Sequence record: KX130864
Source of the DNA: Shigella phage SHBML-50-1
Reading direction: 5' to 3' (one strand)
Length of the DNA stretch: 64,000 nt
Numbering within the stretch: the first letter of the stretch is position 1; the number at the start of each line of letters is the position of its first letter. The position numbers and the translations under genes were made by a program. Below the pieces are notes generated by a model that was not told the origin of the DNA, did no database searches, and saw only the letters and a program-made list of their open reading frames with translations. Shown one piece after another: positions 3,194 through 56,075 of this stretch.

Positions 3194-3206
3194 TCTTTGA
3201 CGATTT

Positions 3207-3238
3207 AAGGGACCTTCGGGTCCCTTTAGTTGTTTTTA
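3207..3238 (+). terminator. rho-independent terminator after gene 23
   Basis: aagggacc-ttcg-ggtccctt hairpin followed by a T-run. Confidence 0.8.
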
Positions 3239-3241
3239 TGG

Positions 3242-3249
3242 TATAAATA
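3242..3249 (+). promoter_or_regulatory. late promoter for gene 24
   Basis: Exact TATAAATA between terminator and gene 24. Confidence 0.7.
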
Positions 3250-3276
3250 AATCATATAAACCAAAAGGAAAGCGCA

Positions 3277-4560
3277 ATGGCTAAAATCAACGAACTTCTG
3301 CGCGAATCAACCACAACGAATAGCAACTCAATCGGTCGCCCAAATCTCGTTGCTTTGACTCGCGCTACCACTAAATTAATATATTCTGACATTGTAGCAA
3401 CGCAAAGAACTAATCAACCTGTTGCTGCTTTTTATGGTATCAAATACCTTAACCCAGATAACGAATTTACATTTAAAACTGGTGCTACTTACGCTGGCGA
3501 AGCTGGATACGTAGACCGAGAACAAATCACAGAATTAACAGAAGAGTCTAAATTAACTCTCAATAAAGGCGATTTATTCAAATATAATAATATCGTTTAT
3601 AAAGTATTAGAAAATACACCATTTGCTGATATTGAAGAAAGTGATTTAGAATTAGCTCTTCAGATTGCAATTGTTCTTTTAAAGGTTCGTCTATTTTCTG
3701 ATGCTGCAGTAACAAGCAAATTTGAAAGCTCTGATAGTGAAATTGCGGATGCTAGATTCCAGATTAATAAATGGCAAACCGCAGTTAAATCTCGTAAACT
3801 TAAAACTGGCATTACAGTTGAATTAGCACAAGATTTAGAAGCAAATGGATTCGATGCTCCTAATTTCTTGGAAGATTTGCTTGCAACCGAAATGGCAGAT
3901 GAAATCAATAAAGATATTCTGCAGTCTTTGATTACAGTGTCAAAACGCTATAAAGTTACAGGAATTACTGATACTGGATTCATTGATTTGAGTTATGCAT
4001 CTGCACCTGAAGCTGGTCGTTCATTATACCGAATGGTGTGTGAAATGGTTTCGCATATCCAAAAAGAATCAACTTATACTGCAACGTTCTGTGTTGCTTC
4101 AGCTCGTGCCGCTGCGATTCTTGCTGCATCAGGTTGGTTAAAACATAAACCAGAAGATGACAAATATCTTTCACAAAATGCCTACGGGTTCTTAGCTAAT
4201 GGTTTACCGCTTTATTGCGATACCAACAGCCCATTAGATTATGTAATCGTTGGCGTAGTAGAAAATATCGGTGAAAAAGAAATTGTTGGATCAATTTTCT
4301 ATGCTCCGTATACAGAAGGTCTTGACTTAGATGACCCTGAACATGTAGGTGCATTTAAAGTTGTTGTTGATCCAGAAAGCTTACAACCGTCTATCGGTTT
4401 ATTAGTTAGATATGCTTTATCAGCAAATCCTTATACCGTAGCAAAAGATGAAAAAGAAGCAAGAATAATTGACGGTGGAGACATGGATAAAATGGCGGGT
4501 CGTTCAGATTTGTCTGTTTTATTAGGTGTTAAATTACCAAAAATTATTATTGATGAATAA
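3277..4560 (+). CDS. 24: capsid vertex protein gp24 (gp23 paralog)
   Basis: 427 aa; late promoter TATAAATA at 3242-3249; conserved position after gene 23. Confidence 0.92.
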   Translation: MAKINELLRESTTTNSNSIGRPNLVALTRATTKLIYSDIVATQRTNQPVAAFYGIKYLNPDNEFTFKTGATYAGEAGYVDREQITELTEESKLTLNKGDLFKYNNIVYKVLENTPFADIEESDLELALQIAIVLLKVRLFSDAAVTSKFESSDSEIADARFQINKWQTAVKSRKLKTGITVELAQDLEANGFDAPNFLEDLLATEMADEINKDILQSLITVSKRYKVTGITDTGFIDLSYASAPEAGRSLYRMVCEMVSHIQKESTYTATFCVASARAAAILAASGWLKHKPEDDKYLSQNAYGFLANGLPLYCDTNSPLDYVIVGVVENIGEKEIVGSIFYAPYTEGLDLDDPEHVGAFKVVVDPESLQPSIGLLVRYALSANPYTVAKDEKEARIIDGGDMDKMAGRSDLSVLLGVKLPKIIIDE

Positions 4561-7997: not shown

Positions 7998-8010
7998 AAT
8001 ATTTCCTCAG

Positions 8011-8018
8011 TATAAATA
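8011..8018 (+). promoter_or_regulatory. late promoter for uvsW
   Basis: Exact TATAAATA about 30 nt upstream of ATG. Confidence 0.65.
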
Positions 8019-8047
8019 TAGATATATTTATTACATGGTATTTAGAC

Positions 8048-18429: not shown

Positions 18430-18470
18430 AAGATTACTATAACACAACACGAGGGACTTGTAAACTACAT
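18430..18470 (-). promoter_or_regulatory. early promoter for the alt.-3 ORF
   Basis: Minus strand GTTTACA, 17 nt, TATAGT. Confidence 0.6.
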
Positions 18471-20522
18471 CTTGAACTTTTTAGACATTCCGTTGATGTT
18501 AACCAAAGAAGCCAAGATTTGAGAAACTTCGTTTTCCTCTTCTTTTGATTCTTCTACGAGGAATTGATTAAACCCAGCCATTGGACGAACTTCGCCAGTT
18601 TCCATTAGATGATCGCCATCATATACCGATTCTTCTAATTGTTCAGAAGGAGGAACGATTGTGCCTTCGATTAGATACTTGTTATAAGCAGTTTCTTTCA
18701 TAAAGTAAGTACTTACTTTATTAATCTTCAGTAAAATTCCACGTGGTAGAATAACTTCAGCTTCTGATGGAAATCCTGATAAATGACCTGGAACGATAAC
18801 TTTGATTCGCTCAGCTCCTTTAATTACCATACCCACGCTAGTTTCAGCATCTTCATTAGCATATGTAGAATGACTACCCATATGCATCAAATCTTCTGCA
18901 TCAATGGAACCTTCTCCTTCACCAGAAAATACTGCGCCGGAATCATCTAGAGCCATATAGTTTTTACCATGCTCACCGAAGATATTTGGTTTAAGCGATG
19001 TTGATACGAAGTTCTTGAAATAGAACATTTTATTTTCAATGTTATGACGCAAAGTTTTAAAGGTAACTTCTTGCCCACGATAAAGAGTAGTTCCTGGAGG
19101 AAGAACTGAACCTTTAGCAAATGCAGAATCCAACGTCTCGATGTGTTTAATAGCTCGTTCCATATATTCTTCACGGGTAGAATCAGGTTTACCTAAAAGG
19201 AACGAGTTCATTTCAACATATGAATCTGCACAATAATCTTCAATTACATCAGACTCAGCCTGAGTTAATCCTTTTGGAGTTACTTCAGTGCTTGCGTATT
19301 CATATGCCTGAGCGGCAGATTCATTAATCAATTTATAAATGCCATTCATGACAAATTGAATAATAGCTGTCTTTTCATCTGGTGTAGCTTTAGAACCTTT
19401 AACTAAATCATTGATAATTTTCTTAATAACATCAAAGCTATTAGAAATATTAATGTCAGCAAGATCGCTTAAAATTTTATCAGTTTTATAATCAAAGAAT
19501 TCTTTATTCTTTAAATATTCTTGAGAACCTTGATATGTTATATCGCTCTGCAACTTGATAGATGGATCACGTAAACGTGCATGGGCTAATGCAATATGAT
19601 TTCGGAAACTTTCTAGTTCATAATCGTTAGATTTAAAACGAGAAGCACTTCTCATACCACCGATAGCTCCTTTGCTGAAGTTGGAACCAATCTGAATAAC
19701 GCCAGAGTTCATCGGACCTTCTGCTTTATATACAGGAACTTTAGATTCAAACTCTTGATATTTCTTGGCAGCGAAGCTATCACCCTGAAGTGAAGCATCG
19801 ACAGTAGAATATTGAGCTTGTGCTGCTAATCGACGACTAATTTTAGTTTTCTGAATAACAGCTTGATCCGTGCGCTTATCATTTTCTAAGGCAATAGAAG
19901 CAGCAACAGCAACAGCTTTAGGAACAGCATTACCTGTTTTAACATCCACATAAACATCACCAACCTTTGATTCAACTTTTGTGAATAACTCAGTTGAAAT
20001 AGGAGGTACACCTGGAATGTCTTCTAAATTGGCATTTTTACGGTAAACCATAATATATGCATACTTTTTATCATAATCCCAGATTTCCTTTAAAAGAACA
20101 TATCGACCTGCTCCTTTAGTACGTACTAAACGGTCAGCAATAACTTGCATTTGACGAGCTGCGCCATTTGTTTTACTTTTTAGTACGCGGAATAAGCATG
20201 CATCAATTTTATACTGTTTCATTGTTTGAAGAGCAGTATCAAAAACGGCATTAATGACACCAATTGGATTTCCACCTAAGTTTTTAAGTTTAACTAATGA
20301 TAGTTTCTCATTGACACCTATCATTACGATATGCATCATTTTATCGCCTGGCTTAACGTTTTTATTTGTATCACCACCAGAGGTGTATGTACAAAATCTA
20401 AATCCAGGAAGCACACTTTCTTCGCCGGCTTGAATAGCAAAAATTTGAGGTATTTTATGCTTAGGATTTAAGTTAACAACCGGCGCCGAAGCGCCGTCAA
20501 ATAATTCTGTAATAAGTTCCAT
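18465..20522 (-). CDS. Alt-family ADP-ribosyltransferase paralog
   Basis: 685 aa; N-terminus MELITELFD shared with the neighbouring gene; C-terminal R (TLYRGQ), S-T-S (FVSTSL) and E-x-E (SEAEVILPRG) motifs; AAGGA SD. Confidence 0.85.
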   Translation of the reverse strand: MELITELFDGASAPVVNLNPKHKIPQIFAIQAGEESVLPGFRFCTYTSGGDTNKNVKPGDKMMHIVMIGVNEKLSLVKLKNLGGNPIGVINAVFDTALQTMKQYKIDACLFRVLKSKTNGAARQMQVIADRLVRTKGAGRYVLLKEIWDYDKKYAYIMVYRKNANLEDIPGVPPISTELFTKVESKVGDVYVDVKTGNAVPKAVAVAASIALENDKRTDQAVIQKTKISRRLAAQAQYSTVDASLQGDSFAAKKYQEFESKVPVYKAEGPMNSGVIQIGSNFSKGAIGGMRSASRFKSNDYELESFRNHIALAHARLRDPSIKLQSDITYQGSQEYLKNKEFFDYKTDKILSDLADINISNSFDVIKKIINDLVKGSKATPDEKTAIIQFVMNGIYKLINESAAQAYEYASTEVTPKGLTQAESDVIEDYCADSYVEMNSFLLGKPDSTREEYMERAIKHIETLDSAFAKGSVLPPGTTLYRGQEVTFKTLRHNIENKMFYFKNFVSTSLKPNIFGEHGKNYMALDDSGAVFSGEGEGSIDAEDLMHMGSHSTYANEDAETSVGMVIKGAERIKVIVPGHLSGFPSEAEVILPRGILLKINKVSTYFMKETAYNKYLIEGTIVPPSEQLEESVYDGDHLMETGEVRPMAGFNQFLVEESKEEENEVSQILASLVNINGMSKKFKM

Positions 20523-30919: not shown

Positions 30920-32309
<1,390 letters not shown>

Positions 32310-32313
<4 letters not shown>

Positions 32314-33745: not shown

Positions 33746-35332
<1,587 letters not shown>

Positions 35333-35359
35333 AATAAAATGGGCCTTGCGGCCCACTCC

Positions 35360-36538
35360 TTAAAAATATTTTTTAAAACTCATCATAACTTTATCATCAA
35401 CATCATTATCAATCTGTGCAACAAGGTAAGATGACAGTTCTACTTCTTGCGGCGCGGATTGAACATTATCAGAATTAAGGTATTCACGAATCCAAGGATA
35501 TGGATGTTTAACCGGAGCATCGGTAATTGGGCATGGAAGACCGCACTGTTTCATACGAGATACAGTTAAGTAATCAATAAAGCTCCACATGCTATTTGTA
35601 TTTAATCCAGGAACATCGCCATCTTTAAATAAATGAACTGCCCAATCTTTTTCTTGGCGGTTAACTTCCATGAAAATATCAACTGCTTCTTGTTCACACT
35701 CTTTGGCAATTTTAACCCATTCATCACCATCAGTGCCAAGTTGAAGTTGACGAATAATATATTGTGTACCTTTAAGATGAAGCTGCTCATCACGTGCAAT
35801 GAACTTCATAATCTTGGCATTACCTTCCATGATTTCCATATTCTTGTGGAAGTTAAAGGTACATGCAAAAGATACATAAAAACGAATAGCTTCCAATGCG
35901 TTGATTACGTGCAGGCAGAGGTAAAGAGAGCGCATTAGTTCACGTTTCCAATACATTTCATGCTCTATGGCATCTTTAATATCATCTTCGTCTGCGTTAA
36001 TTTCTTTTTGGTACTCAATATCAGCTTTAGCATTCTGCCAATATCTAGTTTTCTCAATAACATCATCATAATAACGACCAATAGATTCAGCACGTTTCAT
36101 GATAGCTTTATCTAATACAATCTCATCAAATACCTTTGACGGATCAGTATAAAGATTTCGCATAATATGAGTGTATGAACGACTGTGAATAGTTTCACTA
36201 AAAGTCCATGTAGCAACCCATGTATCAAGGCTTGGGTCTGAAATTAATGACATAAGTACAGCAGACGGCGCACGACCCTGAATGCTATCTAGAAGTGATT
36301 GATACTTCAGGTTGTTAGTAAAAATATCTTGCTGATATTGAGGAAGCTTGTTAAATTGCGCAGCATCCATCATTAAGTTTACTTCTTCAGGGCGCCAGAA
36401 AAATGACAACTGCTTTTCGGTTAAATCTTCAAAAACTTTATGACGTTGAATATCATAACGCGCAATACCAAGACCTGAACCAAAAAACATAGGTTCTTTT
36501 AAAACATCAACTGGATTTGTATTAAAAACTGTGCTCAT
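35360..36538 (-). CDS. nrdB: ribonucleotide reductase small subunit NrdB, uninterrupted
   Basis: 392 aa continuous ORF with di-iron ligand motifs; no intron. Confidence 0.93.
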   Translation of the reverse strand: MSTVFNTNPVDVLKEPMFFGSGLGIARYDIQRHKVFEDLTEKQLSFFWRPEEVNLMMDAAQFNKLPQYQQDIFTNNLKYQSLLDSIQGRAPSAVLMSLISDPSLDTWVATWTFSETIHSRSYTHIMRNLYTDPSKVFDEIVLDKAIMKRAESIGRYYDDVIEKTRYWQNAKADIEYQKEINADEDDIKDAIEHEMYWKRELMRSLYLCLHVINALEAIRFYVSFACTFNFHKNMEIMEGNAKIMKFIARDEQLHLKGTQYIIRQLQLGTDGDEWVKIAKECEQEAVDIFMEVNRQEKDWAVHLFKDGDVPGLNTNSMWSFIDYLTVSRMKQCGLPCPITDAPVKHPYPWIREYLNSDNVQSAPQEVELSSYLVAQIDNDVDDKVMMSFKKYF

Positions 36539-36589
36539 AAATTTTCCACTTAGTTAATAGATAGTGACTCGTCCATGAGTCAAATTATA

Positions 36590-38854
36590 TCATAATTTAC
36601 AGGATGAACAATCTTCAGCTTTTGGAGTTTCTATTTCATAATCATCAGTACCAGAACCATCACGGGTATTATGATAATAGAAATTTTTTCCGCCAAAATA
36701 CCAAAAATACAAAAGGTCATCAATCATTATTGACATTGGAACCTTTCCTTTTGGAAAAATCTGTGGGTCATAATATGTATTCGCCGAAGCTGATTGACAA
36801 ACCCATTTCAGCATAATAGCTACCTGCGTAAGATAAGGTTTATTACCTTTCTTAGCTAATTTCCATGTATAATCATAGAGGTCTATGTTATGCTCAATAT
36901 TGGGCACGACTTGATTAAAGGAGCCCTCTTTTGATTCTTTAACAGAGACTGGTCCACGTGGAGGCTCGATACCGTTTGTACTGTTAGAAACTTGGGAAGA
37001 TGACTCACATGGCATAAGTGCTGATAATGTGCTATTACGGATGCCAAAGAGCTTAAGGTCTTCCCGCAGCGACGACCAGTCACAAACGTATTTTGGAGCT
37101 GCGATTTGGTCAATCTTTTTATTGTACCAGTCGATAGGTAATTCGCCTCGAGACCAACGAGTGTCTGAATAATATTCGCAAGGTCCTTTTTCTTTGGCGA
37201 GCTTAATGGATGCTTTAATGAGTCCATACTGTAATCTCTCAAATAGTTCATGTGTTAAATCGTTAGCATCTTCATAAGAAGCAAAGTTACTTGCCAGCCA
37301 AGCTGCATAGTTAGTAACACCTACACCAAGGTTTCGACGCTTTTTAGCTTTTTCTGCTTCAGGAACTGGATATCCTTGGTAATCCAAAAGATTATCAAGA
37401 GCACGAACTTGAACTTCTGCCAATTCATTAATTTTATCTTGGTCTTGCCAGTCAAAATTATCTAGCACAAATGCAGATAACGTGCACAATCCAATTTCAG
37501 CATCGGGGCTATTCACATCATTTGTTGGAATAGCAATTTCACAGCACAAGTTACTCTGACGAATAGGTGCCTTTTCACGAATAAATGGAGTATAGTTATT
37601 CGTATTATCAATGAACTGCACATAAATCCTTGCTGTTCCTGAGCGTTCAGTCATGAGCAATTCAAATAGTTCACGGGCTTTAATGCGCTTTTTACGAATA
37701 TTAGGGTCTTTTTCTGCTGCTTCGTATAATTCACGGAAACGGTCTTGGTCTTTAAAATAAGAATAATAAAGCTCGCCACCCATTTCATGCGGACTGAACA
37801 AAGTAATGTAGTCGTTCTTTCCAAAACGTTCCATCATTAGATCATTCAGTTGAACACCATAATCCATATGACGAATGCGGTTTTCTTCTACACCTTTGTT
37901 ATTTTTCAAAACAAGAAGATTTTCAACTTCCAAATGCCAAATAGGATAATAAGCAGTAGCAGCGCCGCCACGAATTCCACCTTGTGAGCATGATTTAACA
38001 GCAGTCTGAAAATGTTTCCAAAAAGGAATAACACCAGTATGACGTACTTCACCCATGCCAATCTTAGAACCTTCGGCACGAATCATACCAACGTTAATAC
38101 CAATTCCAGCGCGTTTAGAGATATATTCAACAATTGAAGCGGAAGCCTTATTGATAGACTTTAATGAATCACCTGCCTCAATAACAACACATGAACTAAA
38201 CTGTCGAGTCGGAGTACGACAACCAGCCATAATAGGAGTTGGTAATGAAATCTGTCGAGTAGATACTGCTTCATAAAAACGGATAACGTGTTTTAATCTA
38301 TCAACAGGTTCATCTTGATGCAATGCCATTCCAATAGTCATAAATGCAAACTGTGGAGTTTCATAAATTTGACCAGTGGTTTTATCTTTAACTAGATATT
38401 TTTCTTTTAATTGCATCGCCCCGGAATAAGTAAATTCCATATCCCGCTCGTGCTTAATTTTTGATTCTAAAAATGTAATTTCTTCTGCTGAATATTTTGA
38501 CAATAATTCAGGGTCATATTTACCTGCATTTACACAATAAGAAATATGGTCAATAAATGAACGTGGTTCATATTGTCCGTAAACATGCTTACGAAGAGCG
38601 AACATTAAACAACGTGCAGCTACATATTGATAATCAGGCTCTTCAACCGAAATAGAATTCGCAGCAGCCTTAATGACAATAGTCTGAATATCGTCAGTTG
38701 TCATTCCATCACGGAGATAAGATTTAATATTTTCATATAATTCATAAGGATCTACTGATGTTCCTTCAGCTGCCCAAGATAAAACTTTAATAATTTTTTG
38801 TGGGTCAAAGCTCTGAGAAACACCACTACTTTTGATAACATTAATTAATTGCAT
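36590..38854 (-). CDS. nrdA: ribonucleotide reductase large subunit NrdA
   Basis: 754 aa; class I RNR catalytic core motifs; C-terminal CSSC. Confidence 0.95.
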   Translation of the reverse strand: MQLINVIKSSGVSQSFDPQKIIKVLSWAAEGTSVDPYELYENIKSYLRDGMTTDDIQTIVIKAAANSISVEEPDYQYVAARCLMFALRKHVYGQYEPRSFIDHISYCVNAGKYDPELLSKYSAEEITFLESKIKHERDMEFTYSGAMQLKEKYLVKDKTTGQIYETPQFAFMTIGMALHQDEPVDRLKHVIRFYEAVSTRQISLPTPIMAGCRTPTRQFSSCVVIEAGDSLKSINKASASIVEYISKRAGIGINVGMIRAEGSKIGMGEVRHTGVIPFWKHFQTAVKSCSQGGIRGGAATAYYPIWHLEVENLLVLKNNKGVEENRIRHMDYGVQLNDLMMERFGKNDYITLFSPHEMGGELYYSYFKDQDRFRELYEAAEKDPNIRKKRIKARELFELLMTERSGTARIYVQFIDNTNNYTPFIREKAPIRQSNLCCEIAIPTNDVNSPDAEIGLCTLSAFVLDNFDWQDQDKINELAEVQVRALDNLLDYQGYPVPEAEKAKKRRNLGVGVTNYAAWLASNFASYEDANDLTHELFERLQYGLIKASIKLAKEKGPCEYYSDTRWSRGELPIDWYNKKIDQIAAPKYVCDWSSLREDLKLFGIRNSTLSALMPCESSSQVSNSTNGIEPPRGPVSVKESKEGSFNQVVPNIEHNIDLYDYTWKLAKKGNKPYLTQVAIMLKWVCQSASANTYYDPQIFPKGKVPMSIMIDDLLYFWYFGGKNFYYHNTRDGSGTDDYEIETPKAEDCSSCKL

Positions 38855-39171
38855 AAGTCCTCAACTTGAAAATCGTCTTTAAACAATCGGTTAACTATAT
38901 GAGCTATTATATCACCATGACACGGCTTTGGTTTACATGTGCATCCTAGCCTCATTCCACGTAAAGGCTCTAAATGTTCTTTAGTTATTTCTCCGGATTT
39001 AATTCGACGTATAAAATCTTTTTTGAATAATTCAATGGCAGCCTCCCGGCTGCCAGCATCTTTACCGACGTAATTTCCCCAAAATGTACCACGGTGAATA
39101 TTAACATCAAAGTCGGATTTATATTTATTCACTACCCGGCATAGACGGCCCGCGCTGGAATAATTCGTCAT
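38845..39171 (-). CDS. hypothetical protein with CTC..C.HG motif (nrdA.1)
   Basis: 108 aa; [12 protein letters not shown] looks like a metal-binding motif. Confidence 0.55.
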
Positions 39172-39400
39172 ATTGTTTTTCCGTTAATACAGTAATATCA
39201 TAGTAACAATCGGAAGAAGTTTTAACTGTGGAAATTTTATTATCAAAATACTCACGAGTCATTTTATGAGTATAGTATTTTTTACCATAAATGGTAATAG
39301 GCTGTTCTGGTCCTGGAACTTCTAACTCGCTTGGGTTAGGAAGTGTAAAAAGAACGGCACCAGAAGTATCTTTAAATCGTAAAATCATATATCCTCGCAA
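39125..39400 (-). CDS. hypothetical protein (nrdA.2)
   Basis: 91 aa ORF. Confidence 0.5.
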
Positions 39401-39408
39401 TAATAAAA

Positions 39409-40269
39409 TTACACCGCCATCTTTCCTTTAATAGGAGGGTGTGATTCATAGTTGTTAAGAACAAAATTATGTGGCTTTGCGAATTGACTCAACCAAAATA
39501 CCTGCGATTCTGTGTCCCATTCATCAAATTCATCTGGAAATTTTAATTGCAATTCGCATAAATCCATAGGTTCACGACATAAAATTTCTTTACATTGTTC
39601 TACGTGATTCATATAGATATGAGTATTACCACCAGAAAATATCAAATCTCCCGGAATAAGATTACACATCTTAGCTACAATATGAACTAACGTAGCATAT
39701 GATGCAATATTAAATGGAAGACCGAGGAAAACATCTACCGAACGTTGATACCACTGAAGGTCAAGGTATCCATTACGCACATTAAACTGATAGAACATAT
39801 GACAAGGCGGTAATGCCATATATTTAAGTTCAGCTGGATTCCACGCAGAAACAATTTGACGCCTATCATTTGGCAGTTTTTTAATACGATCAATAACTTC
39901 TATAATTTGATCTACACCGCCAAAATCACGCCACTGTTTTCCATAAATTGGACCAAGTTCACCGCTATGGTATCCTAAATCTTTTGCTTGATTTTCGTAA
40001 TTTTCATCCCAGACTGTTTTGCCTTGAATTAATGAATCATGTTGAATTAATCGCAAATCATTGACATTTGTGCTTCCTGATAAAAACCATATTAGCTCAG
40101 CAATGCATGCATTCCAGGCGAGCTTTTTAGTTGTTACTGCAGGAAAACCTTTGGTTAAATCCCAACGCAATTTAGTACCGAACAAAGCAATTGTTCCTGT
40201 GCCCGTTCGGTCATCGGTTTCATAGCCATTTTCAAAAATGTCTTTAATTAAATCTTGGTATTGTTTCAT
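39409..40269 (-). CDS. td: thymidylate synthase, uninterrupted
   Basis: 286 aa continuous ORF; active-site region PPCH; no group I intron. Confidence 0.95.
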
Positions 40270-40306
40270 TTAGTACCTTATATAAATTATAATACATTTT
40301 ATGAAG

Positions 40307-40660
40307 CTAAATAATCAACGGTTTAGCATCAAATTTTCTCTCAATTTCAGGCGTGAAATATAATTCTTTACCGCGTTTGGAAAAGCGACCAATAATATGA
40401 TAATTATTCTCATCAAACGTGATATTACCAATATCCATAGCTTTCAACCAAATATCGATATTTCTATCCAGCTTTATGTCAAAATTCCAATACGGAGAAC
40501 TATTACCGAAAATACTACAAGCGGATTCAGTGAAACAACTGCTATAAATCTTGTCTTTAGGAACTACTAATTGATAGACACCTTTAATAAACTGAGGACC
40601 CTGCCACTTTGGCTGTTTCTCATCTTTTTCTAATAGAATAGGGTAATAATTAAAATTCAT
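40307..40660 (-). CDS. hypothetical protein inserted between frd and td
   Basis: 117 aa ORF exactly filling the frd-td gap; weak SD; no recognisable motif. Confidence 0.55.
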   Translation of the reverse strand: MNFNYYPILLEKDEKQPKWQGPQFIKGVYQLVVPKDKIYSSCFTESACSIFGNSSPYWNFDIKLDRNIDIWLKAMDIGNITFDENNYHIIGRFSKRGKELYFTPEIERKFDAKPLII

Positions 40661-40679
40661 ATTTCCGCCGCGCGTTATT

Positions 40680-41638
<959 letters not shown>

Positions 41639-41691
41639 TTTTTAAAGCATTGCATAATAGAATTCATCATTCATAAACTCAAATACAAAAA

Positions 41692-42051
41692 TTATATTAT
41701 CTCCCATCGAAAAGGGTCAGGAGCATATCCGATAGAGTTAATCATTTTAACTAAAGTTACCATTCCTTTGTTAACTGCTTGTGCGATTTCATCAAAAACT
41801 TCATCGCTATCATCATAAAGGTCATTAAAAAGTTCTAACACGTTCTTCTGAACTTTTAATTTATGACCAACAATCTCGCCTACAGTAAATTCGTTTCCGC
41901 CGATTCCAGTGTAAAACGTAATTACACCAGTTAACAGACTTTCGCGAGAATCTAGGTCATGTGATAAATTAATATAAGCCATCCCGGGTGCAGTTTTAAG
42001 TTGGCAACGAATTCTTACTTGGGTAATTCCGGTTACATGAATGTCGGACAT
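41692..42051 (-). CDS. hypothetical protein (frd.2)
   Basis: 119 aa ORF. Confidence 0.5.
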   Translation of the reverse strand: MSDIHVTGITQVRIRCQLKTAPGMAYINLSHDLDSRESLLTGVITFYTGIGGNEFTVGEIVGHKLKVQKNVLELFNDLYDDSDEVFDEIAQAVNKGMVTLVKMINSIGYAPDPFRWEII

Positions 42052-42319: not shown

Positions 42320-42365
42320 AGTTGATAGGGTAATAGTATCACACTACTACCCTGTTGTAAACAAT
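42320..42365 (-). promoter_or_regulatory. early promoter for frd.3
   Basis: GTTTACA, 17 nt, TACTAT. Confidence 0.55.
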
Positions 42366-42625
42366 TATTTTTGAATTTTATCGAGCCACTTACCAAGCTT
42401 AATCATTTCTTTAGTAGCCTTTTCCATACTTCTGAACTTAACCAATAGAGGATAGGTATCGACACCAATAACTAAACTGGTTACAAGACTGTGTTCACCC
42501 ACAAGCCATAACGAATACGTTTGAATATCGAGCCCGTAATTTCTGTCTTTGTGGACCCGTACACCCATCACTTCAAATTTCTCACTAGCTTTTTCTACCG
42601 CATCCAGGAAATCGTCTTTAGTCAT
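42365..42625 (-). CDS. hypothetical protein
   Basis: 86 aa from ATG at 42625 (track start is a TTG extension). Confidence 0.45.
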   Translation of the reverse strand: MTKDDFLDAVEKASEKFEVMGVRVHKDRNYGLDIQTYSLWLVGEHSLVTSLVIGVDTYPLLVKFRSMEKATKEMIKLGKWLDKIQK

Positions 42626-42626
42626 A

Positions 42627-42992
42627 TTAGGCCTTAAAAGTTTTTCGCAAAAGTTCAATGATTTCGTCTACATTGTTTTCATCTACAATGCAGTGAATTT
42701 TTGTTACGCCAGAAACCTTGTCTTTGACTTCATCTTCTTCAGAAGTCGGTTCTTTATACTCGCGAAAACAATGAAATTCGTCTTCACAAACGTTAAAGTA
42801 AAAATGCTTTCCATTTGCGCATTCAATGTGTTTTATTACTCTAAATCCATCAACAAAGAAAGCTTCTTTAACTTCAAACCATCCGCCGTTTTCTTGAATA
42901 ATTTTAACTATTGATGAATTAGAACGTGGGCGATAATTAATAAATGTATCAATAAGTCTTGGAACAAGCTCATACTTTTTGCCGATATACAT
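42627..42992 (-). CDS. hypothetical Cys/His-containing protein
   Basis: 121 aa from ATG at 42992 with GAGGAAA SD; HIECANGKH...VCEDEFHC. Confidence 0.45.
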   Translation of the reverse strand: MYIGKKYELVPRLIDTFINYRPRSNSSIVKIIQENGGWFEVKEAFFVDGFRVIKHIECANGKHFYFNVCEDEFHCFREYKEPTSEEDEVKDKVSGVTKIHCIVDENNVDEIIELLRKTFKA

Positions 42993-44320: not shown

Positions 44321-44400
44321 TTTTATTTCCTTTTTAATTTAATTAACAGTTGGTGCTATGACGATGTATGACCTCATAGCTGGTCAGTGAGATAATTATA
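44321..44400 (-). promoter_or_regulatory. gene 32 translational operator (A/U-rich UUAAA-repeat leader)
   Basis: mRNA leader reads UUAAAUUAAAAAGGAAAUAAAAAUG immediately before the gene 32 ATG. Confidence 0.6.
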
Positions 44401-44403
44401 ATA

Positions 44404-44411
44404 TATTTATA
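44404..44411 (-). promoter_or_regulatory. late promoter upstream of gene 32
   Basis: TATAAATA on minus strand in the 32-59 intergenic region. Confidence 0.5.
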
Positions 44412-44419
44412 ATAAGCAA

Positions 44420-52418: not shown

Positions 52419-55400
52419 ATGGCTACTTTAAAACAAATACAATTTAAAAGAAGCAAAACTGCAGGTCAACGTCCTGCTGCTTCAGTATTAGCCGAAGGTG
52501 AATTGGCTATAAACTTAAAAGACCGTACTCTTTTTACTAAAGATGACTCGGGAAATATTATTGATTTAAGCATTACCGCTGGCGGTAATATTAGTGGAAA
52601 TATCACTCAAACTGGCGATTATACACAGACTGGAAAATTTAATTTAATTGGTCCGCAAATTGTAGCAAGCGGTGGATATATTGAGTTTAATTATCGTACT
52701 ACTGGAAGTGGGGCTTGGTCTGGTCAACACACTGCAAAAGCTCCAATTTTTGTAGATTTAAGCTCAGCTACTTCCACATCTGAATATAATCCTATAATTA
52801 AACAGCGCTTTAAAGATGGAACTTTTTCATTAGGTACTTTAGTTTCTGAAGGTTCGTTGAAGATTCATTATATCAATGAATCTGGCGATTCGAAATATTG
52901 GACGTTTCGACGTGACGGCGGATTTGTTGTTGACGGTGGAGGTTTAGCAGTATCAGGAGGTAGTATAACTACATCTGGAAATATTGCAGCTCTCGGAAAT
53001 ATTACTTCGCCTCAGATTAATACTAAAAATATTATTTTAGATACAAAAGCATTTGGACAATACGATTCGCAATCATTAGTTCAATATGTTTATCCTGGAA
53101 CAGGTGAAGAAAATGGTATAAACTATCTTCGTAAAGTTCGAGCTAAATCAGGCGGAACCATTTACCATGAAATCGCTTCAGCTCAAACCGGTAAAAATGA
53201 TGAAATTTCTTGGTGGACCGGAAATACACTTACTACTAAATTAATGGGTCTTCGTAATGATGGCGCAATGGTATTACGTCGTTCACTTGCTATTGGCACA
53301 ATTACCACTGACGAAAATACTAACAACTATGGTTCTCCTACTCCAATGGGAGAAAGATATATTGCTTTGGGCGATGCTGCCACTGGTTTAAAATACATTA
53401 AGCAGGGTGTTTATGATTTAGTAGGTAATTGGAATTCTGTTGCTTCTATTACTCCTGATAGTTTCCGTAGTACTCGTAAAGCGTTATTTGGACGTTCAGA
53501 AGACCAAGGCGGAACCTGGACAATGCCTGGAACGAACGCTGCCTTTTTATCAGTTCAAACACAGGCTGATGAAAACACTGCTGGAGACGGCCAGACGCAT
53601 ATTGGCTATAACTCAGGCGGAAAAATGAACCACTATTTCCGTGGTAAAGGCAAAACTAATATTAATACTCAGGAAGGTATGGAAGTTAATCCGGGTATTT
53701 TGAAATTGGTAACTGGCTCTAATAATGTAATGTTTTATGCTGATGGCGGTATTACATCTGTTAAGCAGCTTTCAATATATAATGGCATATATTTAGCAGC
53801 TAATAATTCTACTGCTGGGCTAACATTCGCTCCAACTACTACAATTGATGGCACTAAGCAAATTTTGTGGGAAGGCGGTACTCGTGCTGGTCAGAATAAA
53901 AGCTATGTAACTGTTAAAGCATGGGGTAATTCATTTAATGCATCTGGCGATCGTGCTCGTGAAACAGTTTTTGAAGTATCAGATGGACAAGGATATTATT
54001 TTTATTCACAGCGTGTGGCTCCAAGTGGCTCTGAAACTACTGGGCCTGTTGTAACCCAGTTCAATGGACAAGTTAATGCTAGAGGAAGTATTATTACTGA
54101 CGGAAGTTTTAAAGTTAATGGATTAAGCACTTTAGTCGGTAATGTTACCATGTCTAATGGTTTGTTTGTCCAAGGTGGTTCTTCTATTACTGGACAAGTT
54201 AAAATTGGCGGAACAGCTGATGCATTAAGAATTTGGAATGCTGAATACGGGGCTATTTTCCGTCGTTCTGAAGATAAGCTTTATATTATTCCAACTCCAC
54301 AGAATGCTGGTGAATCAGGTGGTATTTCTAATTTACGTCCGTTCTATATTACATTAAGTAATGGTAAAGTTTCCATGGATCATGATGTAGATATCGGTGG
54401 AGGTAGATTTAAAGTAGAAGTGGCTGGAACTACTGCTAATCAACGCATAACAGTAAATATGGCATCAGATGCTATTAGAATAAATGCTCCAACACAAGAG
54501 TCTTCTAACTTCATTCAAGGACGTAAAGCAGATGTTCCGAAATGGTATTTAGGTATTGGCGATGGCGGAAACGTCGTTCGTATGCATAGTTACACCCATT
54601 CACATGGTATTGCATTAAACTCTGATACTGTCGATATTACTAAGCCTCTTAAAGTCGGAAATGCCCAACTAGGAACTGACGGTAATATTACCGGTGGTTC
54701 AGGAAACTTTGCTAATTTAAACAGTACAATTGAATCATTAAAAACCGATATTGTTTCAAGTTATCCTATTGGAGCTCCTATTCCATGGCCAACGGATACT
54801 CCTCCTGACGGTTACGCTATTATGGAAGGCCAGACTTTTGATAAGTCTGCATACCCAAAATTGGCTATGGCTTACCCATCTGGCGTAATTCCAGATATGC
54901 GCGGGCAAACTATTAAAGGTAAACCAAGTGGTCGAGCTGTATTAAGCGCAGAAGCCGATGGTGTTAAGGCTCATAGCCATAGTGCATCGGCTTCAAGTAC
55001 TGACTTGGGTACTAAAACTACATCAAGCTTTGATTATGGTACTAAAACATCTTCAAGCTTTGATTATGGCACGAAGGGAACTAACAGTACTGGTGGTCAT
55101 TCTCACTCTGTAAATGGTACAACAAGTGCCGCTGGCAACCACGCTCACCACTTAGGTCTGTTATTAGTTAACGGTGGTGATGCTTTGTACGGGTATACAA
55201 CCGTTGGTAACAGCCTCCCTAGAACACTTGACTGGCTTGACAGAAGAGACAATAAATTCCCCAACACTAACACAACTGGTAACCATACACATACATGGTC
55301 TGGCACTACAAGCGGTGCTGGTGCTCATACACATACTGTAGGTATTGGTGCTCATACACATACTGTAGGTATTGGTGCTCATACTCACTCGGTAGCAATT

Positions 55401-55496
55401 GGTTCGCATGGTCATACTATCACTGTAAATAGTACAGGTAATACAGAAAACACGGTTAAAAACATTGCTTTTAACTATATCGTTCGTTTAGCATAA
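52419..55496 (+). CDS. 37: long tail fibre distal subunit gp37 (receptor binding)
   Basis: 1025 aa; C-terminal His-x-His repeat boxes (GAHTHTVGI x3). Confidence 0.93.
55008..55067 (+). repeat. tandem 30-bp repeat encoding GTKT(T/S)SSFDY in gp37
   Basis: Two near-identical copies of ggtactaaaac...agctttgattat. Confidence 0.8.
55320..55400 (+). repeat. tandem 27-bp repeats encoding the His-box GAHTHTVGI in gp37
   Basis: ggtgctcatacacatactgtaggtatt twice plus a diverged third copy. Confidence 0.85.
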
Positions 55497-55500
55497 GGAG

Positions 55501-55516
55501 AGGGGCTTTGGCCCCT
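55501..55516 (+). terminator. hairpin between genes 37 and 38 (weak T tract)
   Basis: aggggc-tttg-gcccct. Confidence 0.35.
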
Positions 55517-55523
55517 TCTAAAT

Positions 55524-56075
55524 ATGAAAATATATCATTATTATTTTGACACTAAAGAATTTTACAAAGAAGAAAATTACAAACCGGTTAAAGGCCTCGG
55601 TCTTCCTGCTCATTCAACAATTAAAAAACCTTTAGAACCTAAAGAAGGATACGCGGTTGTATTTGATGAACGTACTCAAGATTGGATTTATGAAGAAGAC
55701 CATCGCGGCAAACGAGCATGGACTTTTAATAAAGAAGAAATTTTTATAAGTGACATTGGAAGCCCGGTTGGTATAACTTTTGATGAGCCCGGCGAATTTG
55801 ATATATGGACTGATGGCGGTTGGAAAGAAGACGAAACATATAAGCGAGTTTTAATTCGTAATAGAAAAATTGAAGAATTATATAAAGAGTTCCAAGTTTT
55901 AAATAATATGATTGAAGCTTCTGTCGCCAATAAAAAGGAAAAATTTTATTATAAAAACCTTAAGCGGTTCTTTGCTCTTTTAGAAAAGCATGAGCATTTA
56001 GGTGGTGAATTCCCTTCATGGCCTGAAAAAGAACAGAAGCCTTGGTATAAGCGTTTATTCAAGCATTACGTATAA
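55524..56075 (+). CDS. 38: gp38 tail fibre assembly chaperone (T4-type)
   Basis: 183 aa; immediately downstream of gene 37. Confidence 0.8.
   Translation: MKIYHYYFDTKEFYKEENYKPVKGLGLPAHSTIKKPLEPKEGYAVVFDERTQDWIYEEDHRGKRAWTFNKEEIFISDIGSPVGITFDEPGEFDIWTDGGWKEDETYKRVLIRNRKIEELYKEFQVLNNMIEASVANKKEKFYYKNLKRFFALLEKHEHLGGEFPSWPEKEQKPWYKRLFKHYV

Follow-up and report, generated by a model that had tools for sequence, protein, structure and literature searches.

Is the td–nrd cluster of Shigella phage SHBML-50-1 a departure from the usual organization of T-even phages, or an ordinary cluster in which the mobile elements of T4 are missing? The cluster of phage T4 (NC_000866) shares its core genes, their order and their strand with the one described here. 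In the interval covered, T4 additionally carries two introns, one in td with I-TevI and one in nrdB with the I-TevIII relic, as well as mobE with nrdB.1, segG, segE and segD. A preliminary description, made from the sequence letters of record KX130864, had regarded the phage as a streamlined relative of T4 or a recipient never invaded by such elements, and had proposed it as a natural substrate for homing studies. We followed up this description in the whole stretch of DNA presented, a 64-kb window (64,000 nt; hereafter the window). The best explanation, to which we assign a probability of about 0.93, is that frd, ORF117, td, nrdA.2, nrdA.1, nrdA, nrdB and denA form a standard nucleotide-precursor operon of the T2/RB51 type, in which the sites for introns and homing endonuclease genes (HEGs) are all unoccupied (Table 1). 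In such an operon td and nrdB would be expressed simply as continuous ORFs, with nothing extra operating.

Table 1. Positions of genes, spacers and unoccupied sites in the window.
Feature	Coordinates	Strand	Basis
Gene 23–24 spacer, 83 bp, empty segD site	3194..3276	.	Spacer measurement; T4 map
inh–uvsW spacer, 50 bp, empty segE site	7998..8047	.	Flanking genes identified; T4 map
denA, endonuclease II (EndoII)	34922..35356	-	GIY-YIG, E 5e-6; T4/RB51 position and annotation
nrdB, continuous, 392 aa (1,179 nt), T2-type length	35360..36538	-	ORF listing; Pfam Ribonuc_red_sm
Equivalent of the nrdB intron insertion site, unoccupied	35862..35863	-	Alignment to T4
nrdB nt 114–131, MobE nick region of T2 nrdB	36408..36425	-	Identical to T2
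nrdA–nrdB spacer, 51 bp, small hairpin inside	36539..36589	-	Alignment; T2 gap equally 51 bp
nrdA, 754 aa	36590..38854	-	Pfam ATP-cone, Ribonuc_red_lgN, Ribonuc_red_lgC
nrdA.1 (DUF4326)	38845..39171	-	Pfam; RB51 annotation
nrdA.2 (DUF5496)	39125..39400	-	Pfam; RB51 annotation
td, thymidylate synthase, continuous, 286 aa	39409..40269	-	ORF listing; Pfam Thymidylat_synt
Empty I-TevI homing site in td, CAACG cleavage motif kept at −27..−23	39710..39747	-	Alignments
ORF117, RB32ORF229c family, phrog_1928, small beta-rich protein	40307..40660	-	Sequence and profile comparisons
frd, dihydrofolate reductase	40680..41261	-	Pfam
59–32 spacer, 99 bp, empty segG site, near-identical to T2	44321..44419	-	Spacer measurement; T2 comparison

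Unoccupied intron and HEG sites

The td product matched Pfam Thymidylat_synt over its full length (1–266 of 266, E 4e-94). Alignment to the spliced T4 gene revealed differences at 108 of 861 nt (87.5% identity) and residues 231–268 wholly replaced, and it ran through the exact exon–exon junction with no interruption at the known intron site; the T4-equivalent insertion point, 39720/39721, was unoccupied. The nrdB gene likewise aligned exactly across the T4 exon–exon junction and was uninterrupted at its known intron site. It is 88.5% identical to spliced T4 nrdB and 97.8% identical to the gene of RB51/RB68-type phages, encodes 392 aa compared to 388 aa in T4 (four codons longer), and has diverged from T4 at residues 161–206 or thereabouts. 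The ORF listing, Pfam and the T4 alignment thus agreed with the first account of td (286 aa) and nrdB as continuous genes. The T4 introns lacking in the window are 1,017 nt (td) and 598 nt (nrdB) in length (NC_000866.4), and the same alignment showed nrdB.1 and mobE to be cleanly absent as well.

The gap between nrdA and nrdB, previously given as about 50 bp with no mobE-like gene, measured 51 bp (36539–36589) and represents an empty allele of a site that is occupied by mobE and nrdB.1 in T4 and by a 243-aa HNH/NUMOD1 gene in phage JLBYU31. The earlier observation that no seg-like ORF lies between 32 and 59 or between inh and uvsW also held, the corresponding spacers being 99 and 50 bp; these two and the 83 bp separating gene 23 from gene 24 are too short for a gene, and segG, segE and segD are therefore absent.

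The T4 gene order and the precise junctions at both intron sites are also what a laboratory T4 derivative with deleted introns and HEGs would display, an origin named in the preliminary description as one that would undo its reading. We rejected this candidate on the sequence divergence of td and nrdB, which extends to the replaced segments and the four-codon length difference noted above. Identity to T4 in the flanks is not above 99.9%, the best matches for 41–64 kb are only 95–97% identical, and RB51 and RB68, both natural isolates, match the block containing the cluster at 98% identity. In addition, several ORFs are absent from T4, namely ORF117, the ORFs at 41258–41638, 41692–42051, 42365–42658 and 32011–32313, and a full-length alt.-2. 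Engineering from T4 is, on this evidence, so improbable as to be negligible.

Searches for intron cores and homing endonucleases

The preliminary description had called for covariance-model and nuclease-profile searches, and these returned neither an intron core nor an HEG domain in the window. The group I intron model (Intron_gpI, RF00028) gave no Rfam match at E ≤ 10 in the whole 64-kb window or in the 7.3-kb sub-region 34500–41800, and none at the gathering score. In positive controls, the permissive mode (E ≤ 10) detected the T4 td and nrdB introns at 40.3 and 35.7 bits, and the gathering-score mode missed them; we therefore place weight only on the permissive-mode negatives. That the Rfam gathering threshold overlooks T4's own ORF-bearing introns is a methodological by-product of this analysis.

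Sequence comparisons gave a similar picture. With the T4 td and nrdB introns as queries, blastn at word size 7 produced only matches of ≤34 nt with E ≥ 0.05 in the window, and tblastn of I-TevI, SegD, SegE, SegG, MobE, NrdB.1, I-TevIII and the MobE-like protein of JLBYU31 against the window yielded noise (E > 0.3). One of the short td-intron matches, 21 nt long, falls in the inh–uvsW spacer (8013–8033, E 0.054) and was considered as an intron remnant. It was rejected: the match corresponds to the A+T-rich stretch directly upstream of I-TevI in the td intron, and we attribute it to chance or to promoter-like sequence common to both.

A Pfam scan of the window ORFs for GIY-YIG, HNH, NUMOD and LAGLIDADG domains detected none besides the GIY-YIG domain in denA; it covered all called ORFs except gp23, gp29, gp48, alt, gp34 and gp37, which were identified by size, gene order and the annotation of relatives, and gp30, the DNA ligase. 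We rejected denA as a homing endonuclease, because despite its GIY-YIG fold it is a core T4 gene and the orthologue of EndoII, which to our knowledge is found in all T-even phages. These results cover the 64-kb window, and HEGs may be present elsewhere in the genome; nrdD, the third intron-bearing gene of T4, lies outside the window.

An additional gene between frd and td

The cluster contains an extra gene of 117 codons between frd and td, ORF117, which was overlooked in the preliminary description. T4 lacks it, and its frd and td genes overlap. The region is 100% identical in JLBYU31 and about 95% identical in T2, and 361 records contain the gene, among them T2 and also RB3, which does have introns. 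No known function is assigned to its family, PHROG 1928.

If ORF117 were a small or degenerate homing endonuclease, the cluster would not be HEG-free. This idea draws on the 'putative homing endonuclease' annotation of its homologue in phage FriedrichZschokke, on a presence/absence polymorphism similar to that of free-standing HEGs, and on its location, at the point of the T4 frd/td overlap and between 9-bp direct repeats (40264–40272 and 40678–40686) that also appear in the RB51 annotation. The repeat is real, but the window has 11 copies of the 9-mer concerned, TAAATGAAA, which makes it weak evidence of insertion, and we rejected it as an insertion footprint for lack of significance. Furthermore, neither ORF117 nor 20 of its homologues had a Pfam match at E ≤ 1, a profile search of PDB sequences found no relative, and the residues invariant in the family (Q16, W19, G27, G91, K95 and G97) make no nuclease motif, so that no nuclease catalytic motif or fold was recognisable by these three approaches. 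With its occurrence in 361 records, the gene behaves like a common accessory gene. A nuclease identity for ORF117 is accordingly very improbable, and the label on the frd–td ORF in the public record is without support.

Relationship to other T-even phages

The window belongs to a natural mosaic Tequatrovirus in the T2/RB51-type configuration. Close relatives are Tequatroviruses of the RB51/RB68, RB32, wV7 and AR1 type, and the window is none of these genomes. Over 35000–41000, RB51/RB68 match it at 98% identity in a single collinear block; td is 99.5% identical to that of RB51 at the nucleotide level, and the RB51 annotation corresponds gene by gene, including the same set of non-T4 ORFs. In contrast, gp37/gp38 are T4-type in the window and T6/T2-type in RB51. 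T2 (AP018813) shares the continuous 861-nt td, the 1,179-nt nrdB, the 51-bp nrdA–nrdB spacer, a homologue of ORF117 between frd and td, and the 99-bp 59–32 spacer, and in gene lengths, spacers and MobE target the window carries the T2-type set of unoccupied alleles. Differences from T2 comprise a few silent substitutions at the I-TevI homing site and within the 50 nt upstream of it, and the tail-fibre genes, which are T4-type rather than T2-type in the window. JLBYU31 (Tequatrovirus gizh) shows 98.4% identity and, in contrast to the window, has the HNH + NUMOD1 MobE-like gene in the nrdA–nrdB gap, together with a T4-like nrdA 3′ end; it thus carries the occupied allele of the site empty in the window.

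Predicted susceptibility to homing

In crosses between T4 and T2 that follow homing and marker exclusion, the intron-less T2 is the classical recipient and efficiently acquires introns and HEGs. The target sequences for the same reactions are intact in the window. We set the extent of the td homing site from the 38-bp I-TevI target (PMC2988022). Between −30 and +20 this region carries seven differences from T4, all silent and leaving the encoded peptide identical, and about six positions differ from T2; RB51 and JLBYU31 have exactly the sequence of the window. The CNNNG motif, here CAACG, and its spacing are the same as in T4. The MobE nick in T2 nrdB was mapped to nt 114–131 (PMC2790892), and nt 1–146 of the window gene, this region included, are identical to T2.

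With these cognate targets preserved, I-TevI cleavage in td and MobE nicking in nrdB would be predicted when a T4-type phage infects the same cell, and double-strand-break repair could then copy the introns and HEGs into the window-type genome. Judged from its sequence, then, the phage would probably serve as a homing recipient in the same way as T2, and the role earlier suggested for it is plausible.

The distribution of the silent changes in td could suggest the opposite: the intron-less alleles might not be naive recipients at all, but 'immune' variants that resist cleavage and were selected because they evade I-TevI or MobE. The changes are indeed concentrated at the insertion site: nt 481–600 of td contain 14 mismatches to T4, seven of the differences lying within −30..+20, compared to 0–2 mismatches per 60-nt bin in the flanking bins. 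However, neither the critical CNNNG motif nor its spacing has changed, the MobE nick region of nrdB is that of the sensitive T2 allele, and T2 has a comparable number of homing-site changes and is nonetheless an efficient recipient. I-TevI is also reported to be generally tolerant of homing-site changes, many substitutions included (PMC2988022). Selected immunity is therefore an unlikely account of these alleles. Slightly less likely still is a composite of two separate proposals. In it, the silent cluster in td, and perhaps the diverged nrdB patch upstream of the insertion site, would have been selected for reduced cleavage by I-TevI or I-TevIII, leaving the lineage partly immune, and ORF117 would represent a new kind of small cassette, OB-like in fold and present in some genomes but not in others.

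Prevalence and size of the intron-less arrangement

A recipient 'never invaded' would look the same as one that once had introns and lost them, since recombination with an allele free of introns erases every sign of them. In a collection of 50,697 phage records, the T4 td intron was found in about 197, compared to about 500 (497) collinear relatives; the nrdB intron was found in about 117 records, and mobE with nrdB.1 in about 20, again with about 500 collinear records. The patchy distribution of td/nrdB introns, seg and mob genes in T-even phages has been known since the late 1980s and has been tabulated (PMC2988022, PMC2993671). Intron-encoded HEGs are listed for T4, T6, RB3 and LZ2 only, and T2 and RB51 have one and four HEGs, respectively, none of them intronic (PMC2993671, Table 5). 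It is T4 that stands apart, with its 15 HEGs, and intron-less, HEG-poor T-even genomes are the norm (PMC2988022, section 16; PMC2993671, Table 5). The rarity implied by the preliminary description was thus unfounded: the intron-less td–nrd cluster is correctly described but already known and ordinary for T-even phages, the arrangement in T2 being the same. The window adds one more genome with common unoccupied alleles, which matters little, and a natural intron-less substrate for homing studies already exists in phage T2.

The term 'streamlined' did not survive the comparison of sizes either. Measured from gene 21 to denB, the segment is 63,793 bp long in the window and 64,213 bp long in T4, a difference of 420 bp, and the intron and HEG DNA of T4 in this interval amounts to 4,198 bp. 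Since the net deficit is only 420 bp despite the 4,198 bp missing, about 3.8 kb of non-T4 genes in the window compensate for the absent elements.

Absence of introns and homing endonuclease genes from the td-nrd cluster

Pairwise alignments with T4 showed that the td intron, the nrdB intron and the nrdB.1-mobE block of T4 were precisely absent from the window, in which the td and nrdB insertion points corresponded to 39720/39721 and 35862/35863. In line with the preliminary description, td and nrdB were continuous, nrdA and nrdB were separated by 51 bp, and the 59-32 (99 bp) and inh-uvsW (50 bp) spacers held no seg-like ORF, according to T4 alignments, ORF calls and spacer lengths from the gene call. 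The 23-24 spacer measured only 83 bp, indicating that segD was absent too, and none of the called inter-gene gaps across the window exceeded about 200 bp, which left no space for decayed homing endonuclease genes (HEGs). A weak L20_leader-like Rfam match (23 bits against a 58.7-bit threshold) at the nrdB-denA junction (35325-35451, minus strand), also given by the equivalent T4 position, probably stems from the GC-rich terminator hairpin at that place and not from a real leader.

Genes of the td-nrd cluster in the window
Feature	Coordinates	Strand	Basis
denA	34922-35356	-	ORF listing + Pfam
nrdB, 392 aa	35360-36538	-	ORF listing + Pfam
nrdA, 754 aa	36590-38854	-	ORF listing + Pfam
nrdA.1	38845-39171	-	ORF listing + Pfam
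nrdA.2	39125-39400	-	ORF listing + Pfam
td, 286 aa	39409-40269	-	Thymidylate synthase model matched end to end (Pfam)
ORF117, extra ORF of 117 aa	40307-40660	-	ORF listing
frd	40680-41261	-	ORF listing + Pfam

Rfam at the gathering score found nothing in the window, a negative that was worthless because T4's own td-nrdB region, the positive control, also yielded nothing at that setting. A permissive mode recovered the T4 nrdB and td introns at 35.7 bits (L003, the T4 locus, 3508-3748) and 40.3 bits (L003 8595-8825), below the 50-bit Intron_gpI gathering cut-off, so that these classic phage introns with ORFs escape Rfam scans run at default settings. In the permissive mode, Intron_gpI at E≤10 was found neither in the whole window nor in a size-matched 7.3-kb stretch. 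Pfam scans covered all called ORFs except gp30 (DNA ligase) and gp23, gp29, gp48, alt, gp34 and gp37, the latter six assigned by size, gene order and relatives' annotation only. Among the scanned ORFs, no GIY-YIG, HNH, NUMOD or LAGLIDADG domain was detected apart from the GIY-YIG match of denA, a core gene that encodes T4 endonuclease II rather than a homing endonuclease. Only chance-level matches to the window were returned by tblastn with I-TevI, the I-TevIII relic, MobE, NrdB.1, SegD, SegE, SegG and the MobE-like protein of phage JLBYU31, and by blastn with both T4 introns. The T4 alignment, the group I intron covariance search and the GIY-YIG/HNH profile search thus disclosed no intron and no HEG, and the intron-less, HEG-free state of the cluster is confirmed and now formally verified.

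ORF117 is an accessory gene

ORF117, missed in the preliminary description, sits between frd and td, which overlap in T4. Its homologue in the phage FriedrichZschokke record is labelled "putative homing endonuclease", and the RB51 annotation reports a 9-bp repeat flanking its counterpart; this 9-mer, TAAATGAAA, is real (40264-40272 and 40678-40686) but occurs in 11 copies in the window. Pfam gave no match for ORF117 or 20 homologues, its family, PHROG 1928, has no known function, and searching the whole set of PDB sequences with a profile returned nothing meaningful. Exhaustive HMMER searching retrieved no more than 19 relatives, all small (about 110 aa), and Foldseek of the confident, weakly OB-like beta-fold model against viral models retrieved only uncharacterised proteins of T4-like phages. 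Sequence and structure searches showing no nuclease features, the homing endonuclease assignment was rejected. We conclude that ORF117, which 361 phage records contain, T2, RB32 and intron-bearing RB3 among them, is a common accessory gene.

A mosaic natural phage

Megablast of window 35000-41000 against 50,697 phage records matched 972, headed by Enterobacteria phages RB51 and RB68 (98.0% identity over all 6 kb in one collinear piece), which places the window, as judged by this similarity, in a T-even phage (Straboviridae, Tequatrovirus). Comparison of a greedy gene call with RB51 and T4 annotations indicated that the 64 kb span gene 21 to denB, approximately T4 coordinates 103.4-167.7 kb. 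Over 41-64 kb the best relatives were only 95-97% identical; the window is thus none of the sequenced genomes and represents a mosaic natural phage, with no sequenced phage above 97% there. Although RB51 is closest to the window in the nucleotide-metabolism block, its gp37/gp38 are T6/T2-type, unlike the T4-type gp37 (1,025 aa) and gp38 (183 aa) of the window (52419-56075, plus strand).

The preliminary description had weighed an engineered intron-deletion T4 derivative, which was excluded by td and nrdB divergence and by several ORFs absent from T4. Of the 861 nt of td, 108 differed from the spliced T4 gene, and residues 231-268 (39466-39579) were completely replaced; nrdB was 88.5% identical, four codons longer and completely diverged at codons about 161-206 (about 35921-36058). 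Outside these two segments, which are typical mosaic replacement patches, both genes were 95-100% identical to T4.

The proposal of a "streamlined" relative did not hold. From gene 21 to denB the window (63,793 bp) was only 420 bp shorter than T4 (64,213 bp), whose introns and HEGs in this interval total 4,198 bp; the window therefore holds about 3.8 kb absent from T4. This DNA, which makes up for the missing elements, consists of a full-length paralogue (alt.-2), ORF117 and four further ORFs, three lying between frd and frd.2 and one adjoining pseT. The alt.-2 gene (18465-20522, minus strand) encodes a 685-aa alt paralogue with an ADP-ribosyltransferase domain; RB51 also carries it full-length, whereas alt.-1 and alt.-2 of T4 are no more than short relics. 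The four small ORFs (41258-41638, 41692-42051, 42365-42658 and 32011-32313, all minus strand) fall in phrogs 8592, 3566, 4423 and 2364, none with a known function.

Unoccupied alleles among T-even phages

The same layout occurs in T2 (1,179-nt nrdB, 51-bp nrdA-nrdB gap, 861-nt td, extra ORF upstream of td, 99-bp 59-32 gap). In the phage collection, 497 records were collinear with the 6 kb and about 560 matched at ≥80% identity; the T4 td intron, the nrdB intron and mobE + nrdB.1 were covered at ≥80% in 197, 117 and 20 records, respectively. Intron-encoded HEGs have been listed only in T4, T6, RB3 and LZ2, and total HEGs number one in T2, none in RB26 and RB69, and four, none intronic, in RB51 (PMC2993671, Table 5); HEG occupancy of the nrdA-nrdB gap is known to vary, T4 having mobE and U5 having hef at this site (PMC2988022). 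What the window shows is thus an ordinary, published condition of T-even genomes: its alleles are of the T2/RB51 type, they are unoccupied, and the natural phage that carries them is a mosaic.

Its use as a natural homing substrate is plausible from the site sequences. In the I-TevI site of td, the cleavage motif CNNNG was retained as CAACG and correctly spaced, and the seven differences from T4 at -30 to +20 around the insertion point were all silent; I-TevI has been described as generally tolerant of changes in its homing site (PMC2988022). The first 146 nt of nrdB were identical to T2, including nt 114-131, to which MobE-dependent nicks were mapped (PMC2790892), and the 59-32 spacer was a T2-type empty segG site. 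As a homing substrate, the phage would duplicate T2.

Where the window has the empty nrdA-nrdB spacer (36539-36589), JLBYU31, at 98.4% identity, has a full-length MobE-like gene of 243 aa with HNH and NUMOD1 domains (L005, the JLBYU31 locus, 2039-2770). Its nrdA 3′ end is T4-like, yet its nrdB retains the T2-type ("sensitive") sequence at nt 114-131 despite the MobE-like gene, which agrees poorly with the proposal in the literature that polymorphisms in this stretch shield mobE-carrying genomes from self-nicking.
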